A DNA stretch of 24,843 nucleotides, from positions 1-24,843 of the IMG/VR virus record IMGVR_UViG_3300020235_000033, one strand, 5' to 3'. Below the pieces are notes generated by a model. It had not been told where the DNA came from. It made no database searches and worked only from the letters and a program-made list of their open reading frames with translations. The translations under genes were made by a program, and so were the position numbers. Source of the DNA: a virus (Duplodnaviria; Caudoviricetes). How positions within the stretch are numbered: the stretch's first letter is position 1; every line of letters starts with the position of its first letter. Shown here in pieces: positions 375 to 24,157 of the stretch.

Positions 375-1019
375 ATGGCTGTCTCGATGACATTCAACTC
401 GCTCTTGAAAGATCTCCGTGCGTATTTGGAGCGAGGCACGAGCGTGGATCAAACCGTATTCGACCAGCTGCCCAGCCTGATCAATCTGGCTGAGCGTGAG
501 CTGGCAAACCGGTTGAAGATCCTTGGGTTCGTGGCTGTGGTCACGGATACGCTGGGCATCGGACAGTCCGTGATACCGAAACCAAATCGCTGGCGCGACA
601 CGATCTCGATCAGCATCGGAGTCGGTTCAACTCAGGTGCGTACCCCTTTGTTCGCACGGTCGTACGAGTATGCACGACGCTATTGGCCTGATGAAGATCT
701 GACGGACCAACCAAAGTTTTACGCGGACTATGACTACTTCAATTGGTTGTTCGCTCCGTCTGCGGATTTCGCATATCCGTTCGAGGTCAACTATTGGGAG
801 TTGCCTGCACTTCTGGATGCCACCAATCAAACGAACTGGACGACGGACTTTGCCCCGAACTCCCTGCTTCATGGTGCGCTCCTGCAGGCAACTCCATTTT
901 TAAAGAACGACGAACGCATTGCGGTATGGCAAAACATTTACGAGAAAGATATTGCGATCCTTGAGGGGCAGGACATCAAACGCATTATCGATAGAAACGT
1001 TACGAGGGAGAGTGTCTGA
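375..1019 (+). CDS. Putative head-tail adaptor / tail tubular protein A-like
   Basis: 214 aa with AGGAG RBS. Pattern (INLAERELA...PKFYA...FAPSAD...NSLLHGALLQA) resembles phage adaptor proteins; precedes the fibre and nozzle genes. Confidence 0.65.
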   Translation: MAVSMTFNSLLKDLRAYLERGTSVDQTVFDQLPSLINLAERELANRLKILGFVAVVTDTLGIGQSVIPKPNRWRDTISISIGVGSTQVRTPLFARSYEYARRYWPDEDLTDQPKFYADYDYFNWLFAPSADFAYPFEVNYWELPALLDATNQTNWTTDFAPNSLLHGALLQATPFLKNDERIAVWQNIYEKDIAILEGQDIKRIIDRNVTRESV

Positions 1020-3322
1020 TGAGTTACACCGACGTCTTTGGCGGAGACCTGATCTTCCCGTCGCAGTTAAGTTACCTGTCGATCACCACGGCAGTGGATG
1101 TCCAGTTGCAGTGGCCGACTGAGCAACAGATTACTGGCGGCAATGTCGTTGCAGATTTCATGGATGTGGATGCTTCGGCTCCGTCGCTCAACATTGACAT
1201 GCCATCAGCGTTGGTGACAGGCGAAGGTAACAAAGGAACGTTCAACAACGTTGGCTCGAACACATTCACTGTGCGCGATAGCACGGGAGGCACGATTCAG
1301 TCGGTTGCTCCTGGAGAAATATGGATCATCGTTCTTCGAGACAACACGACTGCTGCAGGTCTGTGGCGTACCTTCCAACTGGGTGCGAGCGTTGCTGTTG
1401 CATCAGCCTCTGCACTGGCAGGCGCAGGTATCAAAGCAATTGGTATCCTGCTTAATCAGAAGGTCGATTCCGATGTCGAAGCAGCGACACCGTTCACAGT
1501 GGTTGATGGTGACCGGGCGAAGTGTCTGATTTACACAGCGGGTGCAGGTACATGCAACTTGCCGTCGCCGGGAGCGGTCGGCAATGACTGGTTCTTCATG
1601 TTGCGCAACTCAGGCAGTGGCACGCTCAACATTGTGCCCCCGTCTGGCAACATCGATGGGTCATCGAGCATCAATCTCGATCCGAATGATTCGTGTTTCA
1701 TCTTTACCGACAACACGAACTTCTTCACCATTGGACTCAGCTCCGGTTCGACCATTGCATTCGACTTCGTGTCGATTCCGGTACCGGGCTCCGGTGACTT
1801 TGTGCTTAGCGGTGCAAACCTTGACCGGATTGCGTATCGCTTCACGGGCGCACTGACGGGTAACCGACGCATCGTTATACCGAACACGACGCAGCAGTAC
1901 TGGGTGGACAACCAGACGAGTGGTGCCTTCAGTCTGGAGATCGATACAGCTGCAGGTGCGGGGCAAGTGATCCCGCAAGGGCAGAGTCTGATCGTTTACT
2001 GCGATGCCGTTGACGTGATCAACGCGACGTCATCCACCAGTGTGGCGTTCCCGATCACCATTGGTCAGGGTGGTACCAATGCGACGACGGCAGCGGGTGC
2101 ACGTGCCAATTTAGGTGTACCGGCTGAGACCATCGACTTGATTGCTGGAGACGGCATGGTTGGAGGTGGTGATCTCTCTGGTCCTGATCGAACTTTCGAC
2201 TTTAATTTGGCAAGTATCGGGGTAGCAGTCCCTGATGTTGCTGCTGACTTCTTCGTCTTCCAAGACGTGGACAATGCTGACGTCAATGCAAAGGCTCTCC
2301 TAAGTACCATCGCTGGTCTTACCATTGAAGATGAAGGCGCACCGTTAGCAACGCTTGCACAGGTCCTCGACTTCGTTGGTGGATTCGTTACGGCTTCGGG
2401 TGGGGGTGCATCGAAGACAATTACCATCGGGGCACCGCTGATCTTACTTGACAGTGAGGAGATTCAGTGGGGCACTGGCAACGACATCCAGATGTTCTTC
2501 GATGGCTCAGTGACGTTGGAGATAGCCAGTTCATTAGCTGCAGGACATGCACTTTTCGTCAACTGTTCTACCAATGGCATCACAGACATAATCGTCAGCA
2601 ACAGCGTGGGAGGCGTAGGAATGCGCGTCATCACTGGTGGTGATGGTCAGATCTGTACCTACTCACCTGCAGGTTCCTTCCAGCAGGTTCTGATTGACCT
2701 GGTGGACAGTGACAACTCTGTTCTCCTGCGCTTTCAGGGATCCAATGCACTACGAACTCGAAGCGTCAGTGGAGCTTACCCTCACAATCAGGGTGGAGGC
2801 GCAACCATCAACAACAACGCCACTGGCAACGGTGACGCAAGAATACTTTCATGGTACGACCAGCACTTTGCCGCAGCAGAGAATAACTTAGCGCGCAACC
2901 TAACGAATACCATTACTGACGACGATGACCTCGTTAGCAATGACGCCGGAGCACCAACGCTGCGACAAGGTCGATACAAATTCGACATGTTTATGATCGT
3001 TCAAGGTAACGACGCGACGACAGATTTTCAGTTCAACTTCGGCGGCACCAACCTGTCACTACTCGGTTATTCCTGGGAAGCTATCACGGCTGATGGGGCT
3101 CCCGTCTCTTCCGGAGCAAGTGGTGCGGTCGCAACGGTGCAGACGGTTGACTTAGGAGCTACGCTCAACGAGGAAGTCTTCCTGCGCATACGAGGTCACT
3201 TCTTCATCAATTCTAACGGAGGCATCATCAACTTCCGTTGGGCACCTACTGCCAGCGTGATCGACGATGTGACGCGACAGCAAAACGCTTACCTGTGTAT
3301 CGCAGCGGCAAGGATTGGTTAA
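1019..3322 (+). CDS. Putative tail fibre / receptor-binding structural protein
   Basis: 767 aa, beta-rich and G/S/T/N-rich; contains the fibre connector motif IGQGGTNATTAAGARANLG; TGATG overlap with the adaptor gene. Confidence 0.65.
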   Translation: MSYTDVFGGDLIFPSQLSYLSITTAVDVQLQWPTEQQITGGNVVADFMDVDASAPSLNIDMPSALVTGEGNKGTFNNVGSNTFTVRDSTGGTIQSVAPGEIWIIVLRDNTTAAGLWRTFQLGASVAVASASALAGAGIKAIGILLNQKVDSDVEAATPFTVVDGDRAKCLIYTAGAGTCNLPSPGAVGNDWFFMLRNSGSGTLNIVPPSGNIDGSSSINLDPNDSCFIFTDNTNFFTIGLSSGSTIAFDFVSIPVPGSGDFVLSGANLDRIAYRFTGALTGNRRIVIPNTTQQYWVDNQTSGAFSLEIDTAAGAGQVIPQGQSLIVYCDAVDVINATSSTSVAFPITIGQGGTNATTAAGARANLGVPAETIDLIAGDGMVGGGDLSGPDRTFDFNLASIGVAVPDVAADFFVFQDVDNADVNAKALLSTIAGLTIEDEGAPLATLAQVLDFVGGFVTASGGGASKTITIGAPLILLDSEEIQWGTGNDIQMFFDGSVTLEIASSLAAGHALFVNCSTNGITDIIVSNSVGGVGMRVITGGDGQICTYSPAGSFQQVLIDLVDSDNSVLLRFQGSNALRTRSVSGAYPHNQGGGATINNNATGNGDARILSWYDQHFAAAENNLARNLTNTITDDDDLVSNDAGAPTLRQGRYKFDMFMIVQGNDATTDFQFNFGGTNLSLLGYSWEAITADGAPVSSGASGAVATVQTVDLGATLNEEVFLRIRGHFFINSNGGIINFRWAPTASVIDDVTRQQNAYLCIAAARIG

Positions 3323-4881
3323 TGGCTGCACAACCTGCACGCTTAGCCTCAGCTCCCGGAATCAAACGGGACGGTACTCGCTTTGACAGCGAGCACTACG
3401 TCGATGGGCTGTGGTGCAGGTTCCAACGTGGCATGCCGAAAAAGATTGGCGGCTATCAGCAGGTCACCGACACGGTGCCGGAAGTTACGCGCGGCATGGC
3501 TACCTTCTCGCAAGACGACGTTCAGTTCTTGCACCTGGGGCATCCGAACACTCTTGGTCAGTACCAGGTCTCGAACGGCTCGTTGTTCCTCTTCAGTGAT
3601 CGCACGCCTGCTGCTTTCGTTACTGACCTTAACAATCTGTGGCAGTTCGAGGTTTATGCCGACACGCAGGGCACGGGCAATCATGTGCTAATTGCACACG
3701 CTGCACCGAACGCTGCGAACATCGACAACTCGATTGGCGGCACTATCTGGCTCGACACGATGACTGCAACCACAATACTCACAACAGTCGGCCTGAATTC
3801 AGGTGCAACTGGATGGAACACCGGCACAGGCGGCGAAGTGAGCGGTGGCATCGTCGTCAGCGGTCTGTACCTGTTTGCATTCGGTAGCGAAGGGATCATT
3901 CGATACTCTGCGATCAACAATCTCTCGGTTGCTCCTGTCGAGTTCAACATCGGCACGCAGAAGCTCGTCAAAGGCATGCCACTTCGAGGTGCCGGTGCTG
4001 GTCCTGCTGTCCTGATATGGGGACTCGACTCCCTCATCCGAGCAACGTTCAATGTGTCAGCTCCACCTGATTTTGTTTTCGACATCGTTGCCCGAGGCAT
4101 TACGATCCTGAGTTCGCAGGGCGTCGTGGAGTTCGACGGCATTTACTATTGGCCCGGTGTTGATCGCTGGTACCTGTTCAACGGTGTCGTGCGCGAGATG
4201 CCCAACAACATGAACCAGAACTTTTTCTTCGACAACATCAACTTCGCACAGCGGCAGAAATGTTTCGGCTTCAAGATCCCTCGCTACGGTGAGATCTGGT
4301 GGTGTTACCCACGTGGCACTGCAACTGAGTGCACCCACGCTGTGGTTTTCAATGTGCGCGAAGGTTACTGGTTCGACACACCGTTGCCTGACTTTGACGA
4401 TGTCGATCAAGGACGCACGGCAGGAGTTTTTGCCAACGTGTTCCAGCGTCCCTTCATGGTGGACAACGAGATCACTGCAAACGGTCGCACGATCTGGCAG
4501 CACGAGACAGCGTTCGACAAGATCCGAACGTCCTCAATCAGCGCTGTTCGATCATTCTTTGAGACGCACGAGTTCTCGCTGCTCGACCAGAACGTGAGTG
4601 AGAAGTCCCTGCATGTTGCACGAGTCGAGCCCGACCTGGTGCAGTCGGGTGACATGACCTTACAGGTACGTGGACGTGCTAATGCCAAAGCTACTGTCGT
4701 TGACGGAGAGATAGGGACAATTTTTGCTACACCTTCCAGCGGCGACGAAGAGACGGTGAAGTTCAAAGAGGTCAAACGACTGATGAGCTTCAAGTTTGAG
4801 TCGAACGTTGCAGGTGGCAACTACGAACTGGGCAAGACTTACGCTCATATCGAGCCTGCTGACGGAAGGGTAGAATCATGA
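3322..4881 (+). CDS. Putative tail nozzle / stabilisation protein (P22 gp10-like, tubular protein B-like)
   Basis: Start better placed at ATG 3322 (TAATG overlap) than the track's TTG at 3238, giving 519 aa. N-terminal PGIKRDGT...YVDGLWCRF...PKKIGG and EIWWCYP are typical of beta-propeller nozzle proteins. Confidence 0.65.
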   Translation: MAAQPARLASAPGIKRDGTRFDSEHYVDGLWCRFQRGMPKKIGGYQQVTDTVPEVTRGMATFSQDDVQFLHLGHPNTLGQYQVSNGSLFLFSDRTPAAFVTDLNNLWQFEVYADTQGTGNHVLIAHAAPNAANIDNSIGGTIWLDTMTATTILTTVGLNSGATGWNTGTGGEVSGGIVVSGLYLFAFGSEGIIRYSAINNLSVAPVEFNIGTQKLVKGMPLRGAGAGPAVLIWGLDSLIRATFNVSAPPDFVFDIVARGITILSSQGVVEFDGIYYWPGVDRWYLFNGVVREMPNNMNQNFFFDNINFAQRQKCFGFKIPRYGEIWWCYPRGTATECTHAVVFNVREGYWFDTPLPDFDDVDQGRTAGVFANVFQRPFMVDNEITANGRTIWQHETAFDKIRTSSISAVRSFFETHEFSLLDQNVSEKSLHVARVEPDLVQSGDMTLQVRGRANAKATVVDGEIGTIFATPSSGDEETVKFKEVKRLMSFKFESNVAGGNYELGKTYAHIEPADGRVES

Positions 4882-5154: not shown

Positions 5155-7119
5155 ATGGCAGCAAAACCTAATCGAAGAGAACTACAGATCACTGAGACCA
5201 TGGATGTGCAAGGTCCCGAGGGCGGCTTATCTGCAATGATTAGTCAGGCTGGTGGCGACAAAAGCATGATTAAGGACGTGCAGAAAGTCGAAGCCATGCC
5301 CGGTGGCATGGAGTTGCTGTACACCATGGCTGCTGAAGAGCTGATGAAAAAAGCTGGTGCCTCCAAATCGGACGCTAAGAAGATCCGTCTCTACAAATAC
5401 GGTGGTGCGGTCGAACGAGCTTATGCGAAGGGAGGTCCAGCCCGAGCAGCGGCAGAGAAGACACGAGCTGCAGGACGTGGCGACGATTCCATGATGCTGC
5501 ACGTCAGCCCTGAAGAGTACGAAGTCATCGAGTCTATGTGGGGACCGGCTGAGATTAACCCCGAGACGGGCATCGGCGAGTACGGTTTCCTCAGTAAGAT
5601 CTGGAAGAAGATTAAGAAAACGGTGAAGAAGATCGTTTCCTCCAAAATTTTCCAGATCGTTGCTCCAATTGCACTGAGCATTTTTGTTCCCGGACTGGGC
5701 GCAGCTATCGGTGGCATGTTTACAGGGAGTAGTGCTGCGGCGAGCGTCATCGGTAATGCCCTCGTGCAGGGCGGACTCAGCGCAGCTGGTGGTGGTGACT
5801 TCATGAAGGGCGCACTTTCCGGTGCGATCACAGGTGGTCTCGGCTCGATGGCTGGCGCACAGGTCAGCAAGATTGCTCCGGGTATGTCTGCACGTACTGC
5901 AGAGATCGTTGGCTCCAGTCTGGCAGGTGGTGCAGCGTCGTCATTAACAGGCGGCGAGTTCATGGAAGGTGCCATCATGGGCGGGCTGGGCGAGTACATG
6001 CAACCAACGATAGAAGGTCTCGTTGGCAAGGGACAAGAGATGTTAGGCCTCCAAGACCCCGCAGCGGGCGGCATCATGGCCGAAGGTATTCCGGATCCAG
6101 TTGCAGTCACAGGTGCACTGGAAGGACCCCCCGGTTTCGGTGATGTGGGTGGTCCTTCCGGTCCACCAGCTCCGATCCCAGGTTACGGTGAGCCCGGTGG
6201 TCCCTCCGGTCCTCCGGGACCTGCAGTAGCTCCACCGACACCTGCCGCTGGAGGAGTAGCACCTGCACCAGCCGGAGCCCTTGGTCAGTTCGGCGACATG
6301 GTGATGCCTGCCTTGATGGGGGCTGGAATCCTTGGTGGTGCTAGTGCGTACGAAGAGGCTGTGCCTCCTGAGATGCCTGAGTGGATGATGGAAAGCTTGC
6401 CGGTTTACAGCATGAACCGACAGTTCCGGGGCATGGATCCCAACGCGTACTACACGTACGGGCAAACCGGTGCACCTCAAAGCGGACAACATTTGTTCAT
6501 GCAACCTGAGCCGTTCGCCGGAGAAACAGGCACACCTACGGTGGGACCGGCTGGTGGTTTGGGCGGAGCCGGTGGTGTAGCAGGCATGATAGCTGCTGGT
6601 CAACCAATCCCAGCTCAGCTGGCGCAGAGTGTTCAAGGTCAGTTGCAAGCTGCAGGTTATAGCCCCGATCCCAACACGGGCAACTGGCTTCCACCGCAGC
6701 CGCAACAGCTAGGTCAGGGCATGCCGGGGAATGCCATGGGCGGCTACCAACGTGGAGGCGAGTTCGATTACTGGGCTCAGAACGCCGACGTACCGCTCGC
6801 TGCACCGACTGTGAGCGCCGCAGGGCGTTATGTTAAAGGACCGGGCACAGGTAGGTCCGACGATATTCCCGCGCGACTGAGCGACGGTGAGTACGTCATG
6901 GACGCAGAAACGGTGTCACTCTTGGGTGACGGATCCGGTGACGCGGGAGCGAAGCGGTTGGATGAGATGCGTCGGAACCTGCGCAAGCACAAAGCAAAGA
7001 ATTTGAGCAAGGGTGGCTTCAGCCACAAGGCGAAGGCACCGCACCAGTACATGGCGCAAGGTGGCATGGCAAGACTTCGTAGAGCGATGACCGAATCGGG
7101 GAGAGTTGTAAATGGCTGA
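5155..7119 (+). CDS. Putative internal virion / DNA-ejection protein with a tape-measure-like C-terminal motif
   Basis: Start likely ATG 5155 (AGGA upstream, 4 nt after the previous stop). Gly/Ala-rich hydrophobic segments; GPGTGRSDDIPARLSDGEYV resembles the motif found in tape-measure and ejection proteins. Confidence 0.65.
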   Translation: MAAKPNRRELQITETMDVQGPEGGLSAMISQAGGDKSMIKDVQKVEAMPGGMELLYTMAAEELMKKAGASKSDAKKIRLYKYGGAVERAYAKGGPARAAAEKTRAAGRGDDSMMLHVSPEEYEVIESMWGPAEINPETGIGEYGFLSKIWKKIKKTVKKIVSSKIFQIVAPIALSIFVPGLGAAIGGMFTGSSAAASVIGNALVQGGLSAAGGGDFMKGALSGAITGGLGSMAGAQVSKIAPGMSARTAEIVGSSLAGGAASSLTGGEFMEGAIMGGLGEYMQPTIEGLVGKGQEMLGLQDPAAGGIMAEGIPDPVAVTGALEGPPGFGDVGGPSGPPAPIPGYGEPGGPSGPPGPAVAPPTPAAGGVAPAPAGALGQFGDMVMPALMGAGILGGASAYEEAVPPEMPEWMMESLPVYSMNRQFRGMDPNAYYTYGQTGAPQSGQHLFMQPEPFAGETGTPTVGPAGGLGGAGGVAGMIAAGQPIPAQLAQSVQGQLQAAGYSPDPNTGNWLPPQPQQLGQGMPGNAMGGYQRGGEFDYWAQNADVPLAAPTVSAAGRYVKGPGTGRSDDIPARLSDGEYVMDAETVSLLGDGSGDAGAKRLDEMRRNLRKHKAKNLSKGGFSHKAKAPHQYMAQGGMARLRRAMTESGRVVNG

Positions 7120-8236
7120 CATTACTGATTTCTTATTTGAGGGAAAACCTCCACAATCGGTCACAACCTACGGGCAAACCGTGGAAAACATCCCGAAGTG
7201 GATGTCGGATTACACGCAGGGACTGATCGCACGAGCGAACGCAGCAGCAGCTGAGCCCTACATCCCGTATGGCGGACCCAGGATCGCTGGTTTCTCTGAG
7301 GACGAGCAGACTGCGTTCGGTTTGACGGAAGCAAACATCGGTGCCTATCAGCCGTACCTCGAAGCGGGAGCTGCGGGTTATGGCGGAGGCCTGCAACGCG
7401 CCGCCAACATCAGACGTTCAGCGGATCCCTTCCTCGAAGCGGGCTCGCGAATGTGGACTGATGAAGGTGTCGCCGAGTCGTACATGAATCCGTATATCGG
7501 TGGCGTGCTCGACCGACAAGAGCAGCTCGCTACGCGCACACTGGAAGAGAGTTTCCTGCCGTCACTGCAGCGCACCTTCGGAGGTGCCGGTCAGTACGGA
7601 TCTCGTGGCGGCACCGGCTCGATGGAAGACATCGGTGTCCAAGGTATGCGAGACATCCAAGAGGGACTCGAAGCACAGCGACTCGAAGCACTGTCCGGAG
7701 CGTACGGTCAGGGCGCAGACATCTTCGGTGCCGACATGTCGCGACAAGGCGAGTTGGCTCGCATTACTGGTGCTCTCGAAGAAGCAGGCGCGCAGCAGAT
7801 GTTCGCCGGAGCCGAAGGTCTTGGCCGAATGGGCGAAGCTGCTCAGAGAATGGGTATTACTGATGCTGCCTCGATGGCAGAGATCGGACAACAGCAGCGC
7901 GGAATGGATCAGGCGAGTCTCGATCTTGCGTACCAGGATTTCATCGAGCAGCGCGATCTGCCGTTCCAACGTGTTGGCTTCATGAGCGACGTCATCCGAG
8001 GACTTCCGTCGCAAGGCGGAGTTACGACACGCACCGATGTAGGACCGGCAAGTATTTATCAGCCGTCAGGTCTGTCGCAACTCGCAGGTGCCTACGGTGT
8101 GTATCGCGGTCTGCAATCGGGAGGAGCCGAAGGCGGCTACCTTATCGACGGAGACTTCGAAGACATGACTGACTACGCGGAGGGTGGGTATGCGTACCCA
8201 AAAGGCGCGCTATCGAGGGCGAGTATGATGAGGTAG
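7112..8236 (+). CDS. Putative DNA-ejection (pilot) protein, 374 aa zero-frame product
   Basis: Helical Q/A/G-rich protein with YMNPY and IGQQQRGMDQASLDLAYQDF...P motifs typical of podovirus pilot proteins; GGGAGAG RBS; overlaps the previous gene. Confidence 0.7.
   Translation: MADITDFLFEGKPPQSVTTYGQTVENIPKWMSDYTQGLIARANAAAAEPYIPYGGPRIAGFSEDEQTAFGLTEANIGAYQPYLEAGAAGYGGGLQRAANIRRSADPFLEAGSRMWTDEGVAESYMNPYIGGVLDRQEQLATRTLEESFLPSLQRTFGGAGQYGSRGGTGSMEDIGVQGMRDIQEGLEAQRLEALSGAYGQGADIFGADMSRQGELARITGALEEAGAQQMFAGAEGLGRMGEAAQRMGITDAASMAEIGQQQRGMDQASLDLAYQDFIEQRDLPFQRVGFMSDVIRGLPSQGGVTTRTDVGPASIYQPSGLSQLAGAYGVYRGLQSGGAEGGYLIDGDFEDMTDYAEGGYAYPKGALSRASMMR
8197..8203 (+). promoter_or_regulatory. Candidate -1 ribosomal frameshift slippery heptamer C_CCA_AAA
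   Basis: X_XXY_YYZ correctly phased in the 7112 ORF (TAC CCA AAA); SD-like GGAGG at 8179-8183, 13 nt upstream; the -1 frame is open to 8409. Confidence 0.65.
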
Positions 8237-8409
8237 GTGAGTACGGCATCGGTGGACTGGCACGTGCTGCAACTTCAGGTATCTGGAACTTCGGACGACG
8301 TGCAGTAGGAGCACTCAGTCAGTGGGCGAAGCAGTTGTACCCTGATTTTGGAAGAGGTGTTGGCGCAGCAGGCGGACATCACCTGGAACTGCAGCATAAA
8401 CAGGATTGA
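8203..8409 (+). CDS. -1 frame extension (68 aa) of the 7112 protein, predicted 432-aa trans-frame product
   Basis: RRAIEGEYDEVGEYGIGGLARAATSGIWNFGRRAVGALSQWAKQLYPDFGRGVGAAGGHHLELQHKQD*. No ATG or GTG in frame; fills the gap to the next gene; echoes the zero-frame IDGDFEDMTDYAEGG. Confidence 0.65.
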   Translation, partial: RRAIEGEYDEVGEYGIGGLARAATSGIWNFGRRAVGALSQWAKQLYPDFGRGVGAAGGHHLELQHKQD

Positions 8410-8411
8410 TC

Positions 8412-10226
8412 ATGAGAGCAGAAGTGGAACAAGCGTATCAGGAGGGGGGCCGAATTAAGGGTGCTCTCCAAACTATGTTTGATCCCGAGACGGGAGGGGT
8501 CATCTTTGGCTCCATAGTTCGAGGTGCTTCCGGTGAATTTAGGATGCAAGCTCTCAGGGATGCGGCAGGCAAGTCCATAGGTGCTGGGCTATCTGACCTC
8601 AAAGGTAAAATATCAGACCGCGACCTGGAGAAGATGAAAGCGGAGATCGCAACGGGAGGTATGCAAGCCTTTCGCCAAAAGATGCAAGCGATGATCGATC
8701 CGAAGATACGAATGCGACAGCTCCACAGAGAAGGAGGCGCGGAGCTGGTCGAAGATACGATGGTCGAGGAATCGTATAACCGTGGTGGAATCGGTGGCCG
8801 AGTTGAAGAGTACGCTAACGGTGCATTGGAGTGGGTACCGAACGGACCCGGTGACGTCCCACAGCCTCCTACCGGTGATGTGTTTTACGATCCGATAGCA
8901 GAAGCGCAACAGGAAGTATCCGGACAACAGAAATTTGCACGAGGTGGCAGAGTGAAAAAATTTCAAGGTGGTGGAGGTGTCGGTGGACTCGGCGCAGTCG
9001 CGGGTCCTCCGGAAGAAGAGGAGCAGGAACCTTTGCTCACTGTGGATGAGATCATAAGTCGGACAACTCACCCCGGTGCCGGGAAGAGCTTGACCGAGTT
9101 GATCGTGATGAATCAGCAGAGTGCTATCGACCGTCTTCGTCAAGGTCGTACACAAATTGCAGAACGAAGAGATAAACAGCGGGCATCGGATGAATCGTCT
9201 AAGTGGCTGGCATTTGCACAAGGCATGCTGGCACCGACACAGACAGGGGGCTTCGGTGAATCGTTAGGTGCGACTGCTGGGTTGTTGCGCGAGGAACAGG
9301 GGCGAGCTGCTGAGCATGAAGCGTATTACGATGAGCAGTTAGACACGAACGTAGCGCAAGAGATTGCTATCGAAGCAAAGATGATCGATCAGATGCTCTC
9401 CATGGCTGGGCATGCCAACCGAGCCAAGGGTATCCACGGAGCGATCCAAACGATGGTCAACCCAGAGCATGTGGGCAGACCTGTCGCTCAGCAACAACTG
9501 ATCTTCGGTGCCATGAAGATGGATAAAGATGGCGAGTGGCGGCTGTCACCTTTAACGGATGAAAACGGTGTTTACTTCGAGGCTGCATCGAGGCTCGATC
9601 CTGCTCGTGCAGATGCGCTCATCACTGCAGCAGAAGGAGCAAAGGCAGAGGAAGGTCGCGGCCAAGAAATGATCGACGAAGCGTACGAATACCGGGCTCC
9701 GATACGGAATGTCAGGCGTGCCAATGCTATTTTCGAAAACGCTGAGACGATCATCGAGACCAGCGGTATCCAAGAACTAAAGAATCGATTGGCGAATTTC
9801 ATGGGGATTGACTTCGGCGACACGATCCTGTTGACCGAGCTGCAGATGATTGCCGCTGAAGATTATTTGCAGAAACTGATGTCACTGAAAGGCAACACGT
9901 CTGACCGTGACGTTAGAGAGATGAAGGGCATCTCTGTTGGTCTGGGACAAAACTCGACAGCGAACTACCGGCGGCTGAAGGAGATGGAATTAATCTATTC
10001 AACTGCAATTCGGAATGGTGTTCGCGAGGCGTACCAACGTGGAAACATGGATGAGGTCAGCGATTTGTGGGAGGCAGCGTATAACAACAGGTGGGTTCGC
10101 GGCGCGGTACCGATCAGCTCAAAAGCGCAGTACGACAAGTTGAAAGTTGGTGCCTACTTCTTCGAAAAGGATGACTGGGGCGGACAAGTACGTCGCAAGA
10201 CTGCTGAACCAGAGAGTGGGGAATAA
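8412..10226 (+). CDS. Putative internal virion / DNA-ejection protein
   Basis: Start likely ATG 8412 (AGGA 6 nt upstream). Helical/coiled-coil protein with LAFAQGMLAPTQTGGFGESLG; N-terminal region carries several xxGG motifs. Confidence 0.65.
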   Translation: MRAEVEQAYQEGGRIKGALQTMFDPETGGVIFGSIVRGASGEFRMQALRDAAGKSIGAGLSDLKGKISDRDLEKMKAEIATGGMQAFRQKMQAMIDPKIRMRQLHREGGAELVEDTMVEESYNRGGIGGRVEEYANGALEWVPNGPGDVPQPPTGDVFYDPIAEAQQEVSGQQKFARGGRVKKFQGGGGVGGLGAVAGPPEEEEQEPLLTVDEIISRTTHPGAGKSLTELIVMNQQSAIDRLRQGRTQIAERRDKQRASDESSKWLAFAQGMLAPTQTGGFGESLGATAGLLREEQGRAAEHEAYYDEQLDTNVAQEIAIEAKMIDQMLSMAGHANRAKGIHGAIQTMVNPEHVGRPVAQQQLIFGAMKMDKDGEWRLSPLTDENGVYFEAASRLDPARADALITAAEGAKAEEGRGQEMIDEAYEYRAPIRNVRRANAIFENAETIIETSGIQELKNRLANFMGIDFGDTILLTELQMIAAEDYLQKLMSLKGNTSDRDVREMKGISVGLGQNSTANYRRLKEMELIYSTAIRNGVREAYQRGNMDEVSDLWEAAYNNRWVRGAVPISSKAQYDKLKVGAYFFEKDDWGGQVRRKTAEPESGE

Positions 10227-12647: not shown

Positions 12648-13225
12648 TGCCTGCACGACGTCTCAAACCACCGGCTAAAAGGTACACGCGTAACCGTGCG
12701 GGTCATCTCCTTGTGGAGGGTTCGCGTGTGTTCCTACCCGATCACCTCGACCAGGTGCGTGCGATTGCGATGCGTGGCATCGATGAAAAGCAGCTGTCTG
12801 AAATCTTCGACATCAGCGCACGACAACTGGGCCTGTGGAAAGCACAGTACCCGTTGTTCAAAGATGCGCTCGAAGAAGGCTACACCGATGCTGATGCTGC
12901 TGTCCTTGGTGCGTTGTACCAGACTGCCGTCGGCTACACGCACGACGAAGAAAAGATTTTCCAGTGGGACGGAGAGGTCATCCGTGCCGACACCATCAAG
13001 CATTACAAACCTGACGTGCAAGCGATCAAGTTGTGGATGACCAACCGACAGCGCGAGTACTGGGCTGATCGCAAAGAAACTGAACACACTGGTAAAGACG
13101 GTGGACCTATCGGTCTGCGCGATGAGACGAAGCTCGAAGTGGTCTCGAGTATTCTTGCACTGATTAAACCGAAGCCCGACAACGCTGTTATCGACGGTAA
13201 AACTGGGGAGGTAGATGATGCCTAG
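12647..13225 (+). CDS. terS: Terminase small subunit-like HTH protein
   Basis: N-terminal HTH (GIDEKQLSEIFDISARQLGLWKAQYPLF), then ADAAVLGALYQTAVGY...KHYKPDVQAIKLWMTNRQ..W.D..E.EHTG.DGGPI, a characteristic TerS family pattern; TAATG overlap. Confidence 0.75.
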   Translation: MPARRLKPPAKRYTRNRAGHLLVEGSRVFLPDHLDQVRAIAMRGIDEKQLSEIFDISARQLGLWKAQYPLFKDALEEGYTDADAAVLGALYQTAVGYTHDEEKIFQWDGEVIRADTIKHYKPDVQAIKLWMTNRQREYWADRKETEHTGKDGGPIGLRDETKLEVVSSILALIKPKPDNAVIDGKTGEVDDA

Positions 13226-14966
13226 CACGTCACCAAAGCAAGCGAAATTAATGCGTGCTGTTGCGCACGGTTGGAAGCCTAATCGAATCGATGGACCATC
13301 AGTTAGCGTGGCGAAGGAGTTCGTCGCAGCTGACAGGTTGGCAGAAATGTATGAAGGAGGTCTCGCACCAATGAACGACATCATCCAACGTGGGTTCGCA
13401 CCGAGCCTGCACATGCAGGGAGGTGGTGAGGTTTGGACTCCTTACGGTCCCGGTCAGGATTATGGAGACATACCTGAAGAGACACTGAAGTTCCTGAACG
13501 CTGAGATCAAAGGTAATAGCAGGTACGCCAAGATGATGCGTAGGATGCAGGAGAAAGGCCGAGTGCAGTACGGCTACAATCCGCCTGCGGTTGCGGCTCC
13601 GACTGCGACTGCGACGCCAGTTCCTGTTACAACGGTGCGTCCACGTGGCGGAAGTGGACGTCGCGGTCGCAACGGAGGTGGACGACGTCAGCGCGACGGA
13701 GATGGAGGTGGGGGCAGACCACCACGTACAGGTCCACCCCCAGGTGTAGAAGGAGACCCACCTGCAGTTACTCCAATCCCACCGAGAGATCGACGAGCAG
13801 GAAGAGACACTGAATATTCAGCAGCACTGCGTGCACATAAAGCACGTGTTGCACAATCATTAGCGGTGCCACCGGGTGGCTACGCGGGAGGAGGTCAAGT
13901 GAATTACTACGATGAAGGCGGAGTTGTCCGTCCCGGTCATGCAGAGGATGCAACGGGAGGACCGAATCCCTATCCACACGGGACGGCTAGTTACAATTAC
14001 TGGGAGAGCAGGAAGCATGTAGATCCTCCTCCTCCAGAAGTGGTTGAAGCGGAACCAGCAGAAGATCTGAGCTGGCTCGACAGGCTGCTTGGGCGAGGTG
14101 AAGACATCAAGACTCGCAGCGAACGTGAGCTGGAAGCACTGGGTGAAGCTCACGGTGGCTACATCGACGTGCCCGGTTATCAATTCGGTGGACTTGCGCA
14201 AGCAAACTTCCGTGGTCCACCACGAGGTGGTGTGTCTCCGCGTGTCGGCATGATGAATCCACGAGGTGGCATCCCGCCGGGTGGTGCGGGAGGTAGATCT
14301 GGAATGCTCTCGCAGCTGAGGCGGCAGGCGCAGAGTCAACGAGGTGGAGCCGGTAGGCGTGGCTTCCCGCCTCGCGCACAGATAGGTGGTCCCGGTGGCA
14401 TGCCGGGTAGAGTCGGTACCTTAGGTGGACCCGGCTACGGACCAAACCCATTAGGTAGCGCAGGTCCCGGCGGATCTTTAAGAGGTGGAGGTGGCTTCCC
14501 TCCCGGAAAGGGACCAAGGATGCAAGTGCCGCCGAGCCCACCGAGAGGGATGCCGTTCGGTGGACGTGACCCGAGAGCGATGCCCCCTCAGGGTGGTGGA
14601 TTCCCGCCGGGTAAAGGACCGAGGCCGATGGTGCCTCCGAGTCCACCGAGAGGCATCCCCAGTCGAGGCATGCCGCCTCAAGGTGGTGGGATACCGTTCG
14701 GTGGACGTGACCCAAGAGCAATGCCGCCTCAAGGTGGAGCAGGTCCCGTTGGTGGAGCAGGTCCCGTTGGTGGACCTAAAATAGCTCCTAATATGCGTGG
14801 CTATCTGCAGAAGCAGCGGATGATGAATCGTCCTCCGGCGAACGTCGGTGGTGGCGTGAACCGTGTCGGTCAACAGGACCAGCAGGGTGGACTAGCGAGA
14901 GCGTTGCAGAGGGGGACCGGACGTCCTCCGATGTCGAGACGTGGTGGCTTCGGACGGGCAAGGTAG
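13218..14966 (+). CDS. Gly/Pro/Arg-rich low-complexity protein, probably virion-internal
   Basis: GGAGG at 13207-13211 favours ATG 13218. N-terminal MPSTSPKQAKLMRAVAH...SVAKEFV module, then disordered RGG/PPG-rich segments and internal repeats. Confidence 0.7.
   Translation: MPSTSPKQAKLMRAVAHGWKPNRIDGPSVSVAKEFVAADRLAEMYEGGLAPMNDIIQRGFAPSLHMQGGGEVWTPYGPGQDYGDIPEETLKFLNAEIKGNSRYAKMMRRMQEKGRVQYGYNPPAVAAPTATATPVPVTTVRPRGGSGRRGRNGGGRRQRDGDGGGGRPPRTGPPPGVEGDPPAVTPIPPRDRRAGRDTEYSAALRAHKARVAQSLAVPPGGYAGGGQVNYYDEGGVVRPGHAEDATGGPNPYPHGTASYNYWESRKHVDPPPPEVVEAEPAEDLSWLDRLLGRGEDIKTRSERELEALGEAHGGYIDVPGYQFGGLAQANFRGPPRGGVSPRVGMMNPRGGIPPGGAGGRSGMLSQLRRQAQSQRGGAGRRGFPPRAQIGGPGGMPGRVGTLGGPGYGPNPLGSAGPGGSLRGGGGFPPGKGPRMQVPPSPPRGMPFGGRDPRAMPPQGGGFPPGKGPRPMVPPSPPRGIPSRGMPPQGGGIPFGGRDPRAMPPQGGAGPVGGAGPVGGPKIAPNMRGYLQKQRMMNRPPANVGGGVNRVGQQDQQGGLARALQRGTGRPPMSRRGGFGRAR
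14485..14774 (+). repeat. Nested coding repeats (GGGFPPGKGPR, VPPSPPRG, PFGGRDPRAMPPQGG, GGAGPV)
   Basis: Near-identical CCGTTCGGTGGACGTGACCC... at 14553 and 14694; exact 18-bp tandem GGTGGAGCAGGTCCCGTT at 14733-14768. Confidence 0.85.
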
Positions 14967-20666: not shown

Positions 20667-21672
20667 GGTGACTCCCTCGTTCAACGTATTCGCTCTTCAT
20701 GATGAAATCAGAGTCCAGTCCCCGGACCTCCGCTTCACAGATTGTTCGGTACTCACAGGTGTTGCAGTTGAATGACGACATGCTGCGGGCGCAGTGTCCG
20801 CCATCTCGTTTGGCTTGAATCTCCGCCGCACTCTGCAGGAAATCGTTGACCACTTCAATGATCATGTTGGTGCTGGGCTTCGGCAGGAATACGCGCTCAA
20901 AGAAGGTGTCTTCCTTCCCTTCAAGCATTTCCAGCATGTCCACGTACTGAGTTGCATCGAGCTTCTCTCTCCTGATCACTTTAAGGTAGGTGTACGGATC
21001 GCAGTCCAGATTCTTGCGCTTCGATAGCTCACCGCTCTTCAGCACTTCCGGTTCGGTCGGTGCCTTCGCTTTGCCGTAGTCCCAGCAGATACCGTCGATC
21101 TTTTCCTTCGGCTTCATCATGCCGTACGCCCACACGTACAGCAGCAGTTGCAGCTCTTGGAATCGATCATCAGCTGTCGGGATGGACTTCATGAATTTGT
21201 GATCTACCAGCCAGCGTCGGTCGTGCACGTCCGTTGCAATCTTATCGATGAAGCCGATGAACATGACTGGGAGAGCACCGCTGCCCAACTTGCTCAGGTC
21301 CACTTCGATCTTGACCTCAGTTGCCTCGTACGTCAGCGGGTCCTTGCGATATTTACGCAGGTAGCCCTCGAAGATCTTGCCACAGTCGCCGATGATGTCA
21401 CCGTGTATGTCACGCTCCTCCTCAAAATAGGCAGCGTACTCTTCAGCGTACGTTTCGAGCACGTCCCATGGATCGCTGCCCGTGTACTTGTTGCCATGAA
21501 TTTTGTATTCAACGTAAGCGTTGAGCATCTCGTGCAGGATCTCGCCGCGCAGCAGACGCACGCCTTTGAACTTACGTTTGATCTTCAGAAAATATCTGTA
21601 CCACCATGCTTTTTGGCATCGTCGATACGAATTCACCTCGCTGAAACTAATGTGCTCACGCGGCTTGCTCAT
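20656..21672 (-). CDS. PD-(D/E)xK (Cas4/RecB-like) exonuclease
   Basis: ISFSEVNSYRRC..., GEILHE, GFIDKI...LVDHK, QLLLY, C-terminal C...CNTCEYRTIC cluster ligands. Confidence 0.85.
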   Translation of the reverse strand: MSKPREHISFSEVNSYRRCQKAWWYRYFLKIKRKFKGVRLLRGEILHEMLNAYVEYKIHGNKYTGSDPWDVLETYAEEYAAYFEEERDIHGDIIGDCGKIFEGYLRKYRKDPLTYEATEVKIEVDLSKLGSGALPVMFIGFIDKIATDVHDRRWLVDHKFMKSIPTADDRFQELQLLLYVWAYGMMKPKEKIDGICWDYGKAKAPTEPEVLKSGELSKRKNLDCDPYTYLKVIRREKLDATQYVDMLEMLEGKEDTFFERVFLPKPSTNMIIEVVNDFLQSAAEIQAKRDGGHCARSMSSFNCNTCEYRTICEAEVRGLDSDFIMKSEYVERGSHHAS

Positions 21673-24157
21673 ACTTCACTCCTTTACCCCAGTTGCCCAG
21701 CGTTGCTTCACCTTCCATCGGCACGCTGAGTGTTATTTTGAATGTGTCCATCAGGGCTGGTCGCTCTGCGATCTTCAGCATCTTCGGCACGCACTCAGGG
21801 ATAACTTCGTCCCTGACAATGGTCAGCACTGCATCGTGATGCTCTCCGACAATTCGCACATGATCACGCGGGAATGTCTTGTGGATCTCGATCAGGATCA
21901 TCGTTTTGTAGTCCCCGATCATGGCTTGCACGCCTGAGTTAACAGCCTGACGTTCAGCTTCCATGCGTACCATCTTGTCTCTGGTCTGAATGCCGGGAAG
22001 CCTGCGCAACCGACCAGTCAGGCAGCGTACGTGACCGTTTGTTTTTGCAAGTCGCTTCGTTCTGGTGTGCCAGTCAGCCAGCCGAGAGTACAGTCGGAAA
22101 TATGCATGACGTGCGTTCTTCGCTTCTGCCATGCTGGGTTCCCAGCCGTAATCCTTCTTCGCCTGCTCGATGAATTTCTTCGGATACATACCGTAGATGA
22201 AGCCGAAGTTAACGGCTTTTGCGCGCGTCCTGCCTTCGTACCAACGTGGCTCGATAGCGATACACTTCTTCGGGCCTGCCTCCATCATGATGTCGAGGCA
22301 TTCGGTGTACGACATGCCACCACAGTCAGCGATGGCTTCAGCGGTGTCGAACACGCGTTCAGTCCACTCGCTCTGCTGACTGATGTACAACGTCTCGATC
22401 ATTGTGCGCCAGTGAACATCTATGCCGTGGGTGAAGCACCGACGCATCTCTGGGTCTTTGGACAGGTGCGCAGCAACACGCATCTCTGCGGTGGCGATAT
22501 CTAACGCGCAGAGTGTCCATCCTTTTGGTGCAGTAATGAGGTTGCGGATCTTTCCATCGCGCGGGATAGGGTGGAGCGGAGAAGAATATCTGCCGGTGAC
22601 AGTGCCGTGCAGTTTGTAATCGAAATAATATTTGTCGCCGATACGATACTTCTCCCAGCCCTTGATGTACGTGTTAAACATCTTAGATGCGCCACGATAG
22701 GCGAGCAGCTTCTTGACGACGGGTTTGGTTGCGATGCTGAGCAGCGCTTCTTCAGATGTAGAATTTGCCCCTTTCTTCGTAAAAATTTTGCACTGATACC
22801 CCAGATCTTTATATAGGAGTTTTCCGATCTGCGCTGGGCTGTTCCAGTTCACGTCGCCGCCAGTCATGTCGTTCAGCTCTTCGCGTTCCGTGATCATCTC
22901 GGATAGCAGTTGGAGCCCGACTTCTTTACGCGCAGCTCCATCGATGGTGAGCCCTTCCATTTCTACGTCTTCCATCGCGCGCGCACCGGGCATTGTGATC
23001 TTCCAAAACAGTCGGTGCACACCTGGGTCTTGTCGCAGCAGGGACTCGAACAGTTTGCCCAGCCTGAGCGTGTACGTCGCGTCCTGCCCGCAGTATTTGT
23101 AGTTGCGCATGGGCTTCTCGGACTTGCCTTGCTTCTCTGCCAGCGAGATGTCGTATTCAGGCTCATCGAGATAGGTGCGGCACAGGCTGGTCAGATCGTG
23201 CGCGAGGTTTTCATCTAACACGTGGTGTGCGAGCATGACATCGAAGGTCAAGCGGAATGAACCACCGAACATCCATCGCATCCATTTATTGTCGAATTTC
23301 CCGTTCTGCGCATACGTGCGTTTTTTATCACGATGAGCAAGAAAGAAAAGCAGTTGCATCAGTTTCCGAAGAGCATCACCGTGCGCGAAGGGGCTGTGGG
23401 AGTAACGCTGGTAATCAGGATGCATAAATCCGGGGATGACCCACGTCCGGTGTTGGAGGGCTATAGCGACTGCAGTGATGTACCCATCTTCTGCGAATGG
23501 TCTGAGCCCCGCTGTCTCCGTATCGAATGCGAATTCGGTTGCCTCCTCAAACTCAGCTACAAAGGTACGGAGGTTTCCTTTCCTGACGACCGTCCACTCG
23601 ACTGTATCATTGCGCAAGCCGCCCTTTATGAGGCGAGCAATCCGAGCAATGTCATCCTGCAGACCCGGAAGCTTCGAGGGATCGCGGAGCGTATACGCCG
23701 GATGGACGATTGGCATTCCGATGTAACTGACTTTGGGATTCTCAATGATTTCGCCATGGAATTGATTGATCTTCGCCTTGCCACGGAAAAGCGTCTTCGT
23801 AGCCGGGACTCCGGCAGTGATGACAAACTTGGGAGCTAGCTGCTCAATTTCTTCATCGAGGTAGTGACGGCAGGCTTTGATCTCTGCTGCCGTGGGAGTT
23901 CGGTTGTTGGGAGGACGGCACTTGACGAGATTGGTGATGTAGGTGATCTCGGTCAGGTTGTTGCGTTCTAATTCGGTGCGCAGAATTTTACCGGACTCCC
24001 CGATAAAGGGCACACCACGTTTGTCTTCGTTCGCGCCGGGAGCCTCCCCGACCACCATGACGGTGACGTTTTTGCGCGGACCATCCCCTGCCATGCATAC
24101 CGTCTTTGCGGTCTCGTGTAATCCGCACTCAGTGCAGTGGGGGTTCAGGCTCGCCAT
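21656..24157 (-). CDS. Family A DNA polymerase with N-terminal family-4 uracil-DNA glycosylase domain and 3'-5' exonuclease
   Basis: UDG: CxxC, VGEAPG..ED..G.PFIG.SG, TNLVKCRPP, HPAY. Exonuclease: FDTET, QNGKFD, YCGQD. Polymerase: TVTGR, motif A D....E.R, motif B RTRAKAVNFGFIYG, AERQAVN..VQ, motif C HD. Confidence 0.92.
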   Translation of the reverse strand: MASLNPHCTECGLHETAKTVCMAGDGPRKNVTVMVVGEAPGANEDKRGVPFIGESGKILRTELERNNLTEITYITNLVKCRPPNNRTPTAAEIKACRHYLDEEIEQLAPKFVITAGVPATKTLFRGKAKINQFHGEIIENPKVSYIGMPIVHPAYTLRDPSKLPGLQDDIARIARLIKGGLRNDTVEWTVVRKGNLRTFVAEFEEATEFAFDTETAGLRPFAEDGYITAVAIALQHRTWVIPGFMHPDYQRYSHSPFAHGDALRKLMQLLFFLAHRDKKRTYAQNGKFDNKWMRWMFGGSFRLTFDVMLAHHVLDENLAHDLTSLCRTYLDEPEYDISLAEKQGKSEKPMRNYKYCGQDATYTLRLGKLFESLLRQDPGVHRLFWKITMPGARAMEDVEMEGLTIDGAARKEVGLQLLSEMITEREELNDMTGGDVNWNSPAQIGKLLYKDLGYQCKIFTKKGANSTSEEALLSIATKPVVKKLLAYRGASKMFNTYIKGWEKYRIGDKYYFDYKLHGTVTGRYSSPLHPIPRDGKIRNLITAPKGWTLCALDIATAEMRVAAHLSKDPEMRRCFTHGIDVHWRTMIETLYISQQSEWTERVFDTAEAIADCGGMSYTECLDIMMEAGPKKCIAIEPRWYEGRTRAKAVNFGFIYGMYPKKFIEQAKKDYGWEPSMAEAKNARHAYFRLYSRLADWHTRTKRLAKTNGHVRCLTGRLRRLPGIQTRDKMVRMEAERQAVNSGVQAMIGDYKTMILIEIHKTFPRDHVRIVGEHHDAVLTIVRDEVIPECVPKMLKIAERPALMDTFKITLSVPMEGEATLGNWGKGVKYEQAA

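Follow-up and report, generated by a model that had tools for sequence, protein, structure and literature searches.

Programmed -1 frameshifting in phages is described for tail chaperones and for capsid or tail-tube proteins that thereby receive an extension (accessible sections of PMC5009743 and PMC10885494), and the accessible sections of PMC10386132 and PMC9227772 hold nothing further on known cases. In the major head and major tail proteins of Lactobacillus phage A2 and in gene 10 of T3 and T7, the shift gives a longer form of a virion protein, and whether the Ig-like extensions typical of this group are reached in frame or by a shift is regarded as a matter of chance (same sections of PMC5009743). 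A conserved -1 shift in the morphogenesis module of phage Lambda gives a short and an extended product, gpG and gpGT, as outlined in the sections at hand. Short forms arise in E. coli dnaX (tau/gamma), in copA (CopA(Z)) and in Halothiobacillus csoS2, where a -1 shift leads into a nearby stop (excerpts of PMC6771820 and PMC5009743). The dnaX shift is aided by an upstream Shine-Dalgarno (SD)-like stimulator (PMC6771820, PMC5009743), such elements stimulate -1 shifts from 9-14 nt upstream, and in other bacteria the short dnaX form is reached by other means (excerpts of PMC5009743). For Alteromonas virus vB_AspP-H4/4, a putative slippery sequence in genes 39/40 led to the prediction of a -1 shift in a podovirus internal virion protein (accessible part of PMC5658483).

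We analyzed a stretch of 24,843 nucleotides (the window), which is part of the genome of an uncultured phage (Caudoviricetes) from marine sediment, with a morphogenesis module on the plus strand and a replication module on the minus strand. The window's own assembly consists of the window and nothing further. An earlier note had proposed that one gene of the morphogenesis module gives two products by a programmed -1 shift (Table 1). This proposal is strongly supported by the comparison of relatives described below, and programmed -1 ribosomal frameshifting giving a long and a short form is very probably the correct reading of the locus.

Table 1. Features of the proposed shift locus (positions in the window).
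Feature	Position	Strand	Remarks
Zero-frame gene, 374 aa	7112..8236	+	short product in the window's phage; likely podoviral DNA-ejection (internal virion) protein; PHROG 4287
Codon-frozen shift cassette	8177..8204	+	one AEGGY repeat copy plus Y-P-K, with SD-like element and heptamer
SD-like GGAGG, predicted 5' stimulator	8179..8183	+	13 nt separate it from the heptamer
Slippery heptamer C_CCA_AAA (site A)	8197..8203	+	phase fits tandem -1 slippage of tRNA-Pro and tRNA-Lys
Weak 4-bp hairpin	8208..8221	+	begins 4 nt past the heptamer; role not supported; a single compensatory change in a set of 4 sequences
-1-frame extension, 68 codons plus TGA	8203..8409	+	one further YxxGG repeat, predicted basic amphipathic helix (about 8251-8340), C-terminus KQD
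Zero-frame stop TAG	8234..8236	+	end of the ORF
AGGA, likely SD of next gene	8402..8405	+	within the last codons of the tail
Next gene, 604 aa, ATG 8412	8412..10226	+	likely another internal virion protein; begins 2 nt past the tail stop; five YxxGG copies

A recount of the ORF confirmed the phase of the heptamer, its distance to the stop and the spacing of GGAGG, and the positions given in the earlier note for heptamer, GGAGG, stops, gap and next ATG all proved correct. Residues Y362, P363 and K364 are encoded by TAC CCA AAA, which places C_CCA_AAA in the X_XXY_YYZ phase and leaves 10 sense codons before the stop. The same heptamer, CCCAAAA, is reportedly the -1 site of Lactobacillus phage A2. 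The -1 frame is open from 8173 onwards and provides 68 codons after the shift, which gives 432 aa in all. As noted earlier, it holds neither ATG nor GTG; a TTG at 8335 and some CTG and ATC codons are nevertheless present, which had gone unmentioned. The extension fills a gap of 175 nt, and none of the other junctions in the plus-strand module (10 in total) has a gap above 11 nt; the genes there overlap or lie within 11 nt, so that the description of this gap as the only large one was borne out.

The product of the shifting gene is likely an ejection protein, as suggested by one match to PHROG 4287 ('DNA ejection protein', E 7.6e-9, residues 22-331) together with gene order; searches with the 374-aa protein gave no Pfam match and no convincing PDB match. 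A homologous core with 35% identity over residues 27-335 occurs in Caulobacter phages RW, GB2A, RLK and KcrB, and the module of RW has a similar gene order and similar gene sizes. Upstream genes encode an SU10 adaptor (PF24175, 375-1019) and a virion structural protein (PHROG 3287, 3325-4881), and the adaptor and tail genes are followed by a run of long genes of 654, 374, 604 and 805 aa. The next gene matched neither PHROG nor Pfam. No chaperone or major-tail family was detected among 11 proteins scanned, and tape-measure matches of the gene at 5155 span just 30-85 residues. A structure model of a relative with an in-frame tail (L059) was mostly helical at low confidence (mean pLDDT 46.8), and its best fold matches were unnamed or loosely named phage proteins with low TM-scores. 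Sequence searches, including 50,697 GenBank phages, revealed no cultured member of the tail-bearing clade.

Several further observations were made in the module and its surroundings. A motif of 30-40 residues in gene 5155-7119 (window 6800-6930) matches several tape-measure PHROGs. The motif [YFMH]xxGG is matched four times in 5155-7119, twice in 7112-8409, five times in 8412-10226, seven times in 13215-14966 and three times in the tail-fibre-like gene 1019-3322, with none in seven minus-strand genes checked; it could be a candidate packaging or cleavage signal. Gene 13215-14966 follows the small terminase gene and encodes a Gly/Pro-rich protein of 583 aa with internal repeats, the first 42 residues of which match PHROG 16759. 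The next gene varies strongly at its N-terminus (window 8412-8990 compared with L002, L003 and L005): in the window, some 190 additional residues, among them several YxxGG copies, precede the part at which close relatives start. A second in-phase heptamer, G_GGA_AAA, lies at 7141-7147 (codons 10-12 of gene 7112-8236); G_GGA_AA(A/G) is found at these codons in 13 haplotypes without an SD and is probably a by-product of the peptide FEGKP. Distant homologues occur in cyanophage records, one of them annotated with a peptidase S74 domain, which indicates that the family accepts other C-terminal additions. On the minus strand, the 833-aa ORF at 21656-24157 resembles, as judged by eye, a family A DNA polymerase with an N-terminal uracil-DNA-glycosylase-like, Cys-rich part.

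A frame break of this kind could also stem from a sequencing or assembly indel, and the earlier note had named 8197-8212 as the region to check. Four of four runs, which come from four studies (marine and subsurface material, 2017-2025), yielded single contigs with a depth of 27-218 that cover 7906-8900; they show 0 gaps and 0 other letters over this range, with the provisos that the window may itself derive from one of the runs (X1) and that contigs mask rare variants. In addition, three relatives with 85-95% protein identity (L002, L003 and L065) share the break. No evidence in favor of an error was found, and this explanation, whose probability is close to nil, is refuted.

Relatives were collected in five collection scans, which gave 137 sequences with a tblastn match (the window and repeated fetches included), 126 of them extending to residue 300. 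Nine rows without the anchor motif were dropped; among the seven of these that were inspected, L113 and L114 belong to the site-C extending type defined below and the other five are tail-less. From the 59 distinct 3' haplotypes obtained, L093 and L110 were too short, and 57 were kept, L049 and L050 being near-copies. A related C-terminal tail is present in 54 of the 57 haplotypes, ending mostly in KQD and in the more distant site-C group in an ExxD-like sequence, and is absent from three. It lies in the -1 frame in 24 haplotypes, all 24 of which carry an in-phase heptamer inside the overlap of the two frames: four at site A (C_CCA_AAA, the type of the window), 12 at site B, which reads G_GGA_AAA and lies some 25 codons deeper in the tail, and eight at site C (G_GGA_AAG). 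In 30 haplotypes the tail lies in the zero frame. Eighteen of these keep site A, five keep site B and seven have no heptamer. In the 23 that keep a signal, a -1 stop follows 3-8 codons past the site, so that a shift there would remove the tail; these are referred to as truncating and the 24 above as extending. A second in-phase heptamer occurs in L124. The same classes recur in 120 proteins obtained by a separate search: 45 stop shortly past PK or GK, the tail forms the end of 68, and seven are other or cut.

In the alignment of homologues proposed in the earlier note, heptamer and -1 ORF occur together in 24/57 haplotypes, and the tail is continuous in one frame in 30/57. The latter does not refute the shift, because 23 of the 30 retain a signal that would truncate the protein. 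A heptamer alone proves nothing, since the 17,904 core codons contain 18 other in-phase cases of identical heptamers (0.001 per codon). At this background, the overlap of 20 codons in the window has a chance of about 2% of holding an in-phase heptamer, with overlaps of 8-73 codons across haplotypes. The haplotypes are kin, and the 47 that bear a heptamer represent three sites and not 47 events; with each site counted once at about 2%, the three would arise by chance roughly once in 100,000 cases by our own arithmetic.

Conservation of the signal was assessed at the codon level. In the 22 haplotypes with site A, C_CCA_AAA followed by G is found without exception, while a conserved xPKW of the same gene, used as control, reads C_CCA_AAA in just 4/55 cases. 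The codons of the cassette are nearly fixed (GAG 22/22, GGT 21/22, GGG 21/22, CCA 22/22, AAA 22/22), and the C preceding the Pro codon is kept in 22/22 across Tyr, Ser and Asp codons. Kinship does not explain this frozen cassette, as codon identity across the same haplotypes is limited to 11 of 154 invariant degenerate columns of the core. GGAGG stands at exactly 13 nt from the heptamer in 22/22, including L072 with its altered peptide, and appears in 1/73 other copies of the [AG][ED]GG repeat. The SD-like stimulator postulated upstream of the heptamer thus keeps its spacing throughout the site-A haplotypes, and 13 nt falls inside the known stimulating range. It is not conserved at sites B and C. 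Next to truncating site A, the Ala codon is GCT in 17/18 haplotypes compared with 11/51 elsewhere, and GCT creates the -1 stop 3 codons on. Judged by this codon usage, the signal is under selection beyond the need for its amino acids.

Sites B and C carry 3' hairpins 5-6 nt downstream of the heptamer, at B in both polarities, with a median rank against the gene's own windows of 0.014 at B (both polarities) and 0.086 at C, and 3' structure is also found in many truncating site-A haplotypes. At the site of the window no significant 3' structure was detected in pseudoknot-free folding: a 60-nt segment folds worse than 72% of the gene's windows, and 117 nt fold no better than shuffles (z -0.51). 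A GGGTA/TACCC hairpin over the site was considered as a conserved element and rejected, being broken in 9 of 22 haplotypes (8 TCC, 1 GAC). It is perfect in the window, where it overlaps the CCC/AAAA run, and it could therefore be taken as a sign that RNA polymerase slips and inserts one base there. Transcriptional slippage aided by a stem-loop is known, requires a long homopolymer run and is independent of codon phase. The runs here comprise just 3-4 bases, every site lies in codon phase, and GGAGG persists where the hairpin is broken, which makes transcriptional slippage very unlikely.

The tail itself behaves as coding sequence, as had been suspected from its repeat. Downstream of the zero-frame stop, pN/pS of the site-A tail is 0.15 compared with 0.19 for the core (6 pairs of 4 haplotypes), and its differences are distributed 23/13/65 over the three codon positions. 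At sites B and C, pN/pS of the tail is 0.43 each (core 0.31 and 0.33), and differences fall mostly at third positions. The -1-frame extension is thus coding and under purifying selection. It contains a basic amphipathic stretch with a hydrophobic moment of up to 0.61; one helix and no strand are predicted in the tail, and the low-confidence model of L059 places a helix at residues 370-392. No match to the tail was found among 50,697 GenBank phages, in Pfam or in PHROG, and the PDB and the Atlas name neither protein nor tail. Among 1.84 billion representatives there were five matches, of which three are the C-terminus of this ejection-protein family and two are unrelated repeat proteins.

It could be argued that the -1 ORF forms a small gene of its own that starts at one of its ATC, CTG or TTG codons, or the dead remnant of a fixed frameshift mutation. 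Both are highly improbable: the tail is fused in frame in 30/57 haplotypes, its conservation begins upstream of TTG 8335, the related matches among the 1.84 billion representatives show it solely as the C-terminus of this family, and purifying selection excludes decay. The resemblance of the zero-frame end KGALSRA to neighboring motifs, which had been pointed out previously, turned out to be coincidental, as KGALSRA is an out-of-frame reading of the xEGGY repeat and differs in relatives; in general, the C-termini of the short forms are not conserved in sequence.

Of the 54 haplotypes with a tail, 44 close it with CAGGAC or CAGGAT, and in 40 an ATG follows the stop of the tail at a distance of 1-4 nt. 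KQD is doubtful as a purely protein motif, because it overlaps the SD of the next gene. From this arrangement one could conclude that the shift is real and serves translational coupling to gene 8412, with the two protein forms as a by-product: only ribosomes that read the tail would stop beside the SD and ATG of that gene, an AGGA element lies within the last codons of the tail, and the remaining junctions of the module are similarly tight. However, selection acts on the amino acids of the tail already far upstream of the SD, the next gene owns an SD, and opposite polarities would give close relatives opposite coupling levels. We therefore consider coupling as the main purpose unlikely.

The position and polarity of the signal vary among close relatives. 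At site A, the distance from heptamer to next repeat is 11 nt in the extending and 9 nt in the truncating type, and at site B one base separates the two polarities. In four haplotypes (L008, L016, L068 and L071), the site-B tail is in frame and reads exactly like the predicted -1 product of site-B haplotypes; their old B heptamer is out of phase and a truncating site-A cassette is found upstream instead. The site-B hairpin of these four is weaker (-15 to -19 compared with -24 and -25.5 kcal/mol). In a quick core tree (63 rows), the seven types require at least 12 changes, and the nearest rows of the window include one site-B extending and one site-A truncating haplotype. In the tail tree the window groups with the heptamer-free clade instead, and this conflict indicates that tails moved by recombination, likely via the repeats.

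Another account is corrective shifting, in which only the long form works, an indel past the site in the lineage of the window was rescued by a pre-existing slippery sequence, and the heptamer of in-frame relatives is a neutral relic or leak. A difference of just 2 nt past the site separates extending from truncating site-A types, the C-termini of short forms are unconserved, and 7/57 haplotypes as well as P0018 appear to make the long form only, all as such a scenario would have it. Against it, the truncating site-A haplotypes retain the heptamer (18/18), GGAGG (18/18) and the nearby -1 stop (17/18) despite divergence at their other synonymous sites (4 of 103 four-fold invariant columns identical). 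A strong hairpin is kept in the five truncating site-B haplotypes, and the existence of tail-less relatives argues against a long form that alone works. Corrective shifting is therefore an improbable account.

P0018 (84% identical) has the tail of the window in frame without Pro-Lys or Gly-Lys, and the tail is absent from 3/57 haplotypes and from relatives at greater distance, among them Caulobacter phage RW. With seven haplotypes and P0018 seemingly long-only and others tail-less, neither form is needed everywhere. The seven heptamer-free haplotypes (L047, L051, L056, L059, L092, L094 and L095) form one clade. They show a frozen block at the position of site A, about 55-45 codons before the gene stop (about 4065-4105 in L059), in which 11/11 invariant codons are identical compared with 121/266 gene-wide. 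It contains a GGAGG 8 nt before a +1-frame ATG (9-codon ORF in 5/7) and a small hairpin, and may be another recoding or internal-start signal. The block was matched by five viral contigs, all already known.

For programmed frameshifting in the window, we propose that some of the ribosomes reaching C_CCA_AAA would shift backwards by one base, with tRNA-Pro and tRNA-Lys moving together and with likely help from pairing of 16S rRNA with GGAGG. The slip would add the conserved 68-residue tail, and both forms are conjectured to be made and packaged. They may constitute a mixed pool or a mixed oligomer, where the tail, present on part of the subunits only, would bind a membrane or a partner. A fixed ratio of the two forms, as assumed in the earlier note, is doubtful, since polarity is opposite in close relatives and the ratio would invert unless shifting is near 50%, and since seven haplotypes have no heptamer and three no tail. 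Across the family, the two-form output is predicted to be kept while the signal was rebuilt at three sites, of which two occur in either polarity. It appears an even question whether selection in these uncultured podoviruses acts on making two ejection-protein forms and not on any one signal, with a -1 site that was rebuilt in three positions and relies on differing stimulators (SD-like or hairpin), polarity flipped at two, and the channel being a mixed oligomer with the amphipathic tail on some subunits only.

In the literature searched, largely without subscription papers and supplements, where lists of predicted shifts could bear on novelty, we found no report of a shift in this family, no report of polarity flipping at one -1 site and no figure for C_CCA_AAA; a term search of the ejection-protein review PMC8954989 did not find 'frameshift'. 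Ejection proteins would, with comparative support, join the few phage proteins known to be diversified through recoding. The interest of the locus lies mainly in the turnover of sites and the switching of polarity. Close relatives form a natural series that differs in site, stimulator and polarity while two-form output mostly persists, which makes testable the standing question of whether selection acts on the ratio or merely on the presence of both forms. In practice, standard gene callers cut about 40% of these genes (24/57) short, and a frame that is continuous in relatives does not rule out a frameshift.

Compared with the described systems, the locus resembles A2 and T3/T7 in giving a longer form of a virion protein; those proteins are capsid or tail-tube subunits with a mostly Ig-like extension (accessible sections of PMC5009743), whereas here a likely ejection protein receives a 68-aa tail that is predicted to be helical and has no counterpart in Pfam or PHROG, placing it outside the Ig-like class. 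While Ig-like extensions are in frame or shifted by chance, in-frame relatives here retain a truncating signal. The 23 truncating haplotypes are predicted to work like dnaX, copA and csoS2, which are chromosomal genes of one polarity, unlike the varying polarity seen here; dnaX moreover has a strong 3' structure that is lacking at the site of the window. With Lambda gpG/gpGT the locus shares a short and an extended product from a morphogenesis module. According to the sections at hand, those are non-virion chaperones of long-tailed phages whose ratio matters, whereas this is a podovirus-type module in which the ratio is probably not tightly fixed, and the window shows no such gene pair between major tail and tape-measure genes. 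The case of vB_AspP-H4/4, likened here by description and not by homology, is a one-genome annotation that joins an endolysin gene to a virion protein gene, is backed by neither comparative nor bench evidence and differs in architecture, as far as the accessible part of PMC5658483 describes it. In Caulobacter phage RW, the gene with the homologous core (PHROG 4287 family) ends about 10 nt before the next gene and has no tail. Taken together, the feature most likely works like the dnaX- and A2-type shifts and stands outside the G/GT and Ig-extension classes.
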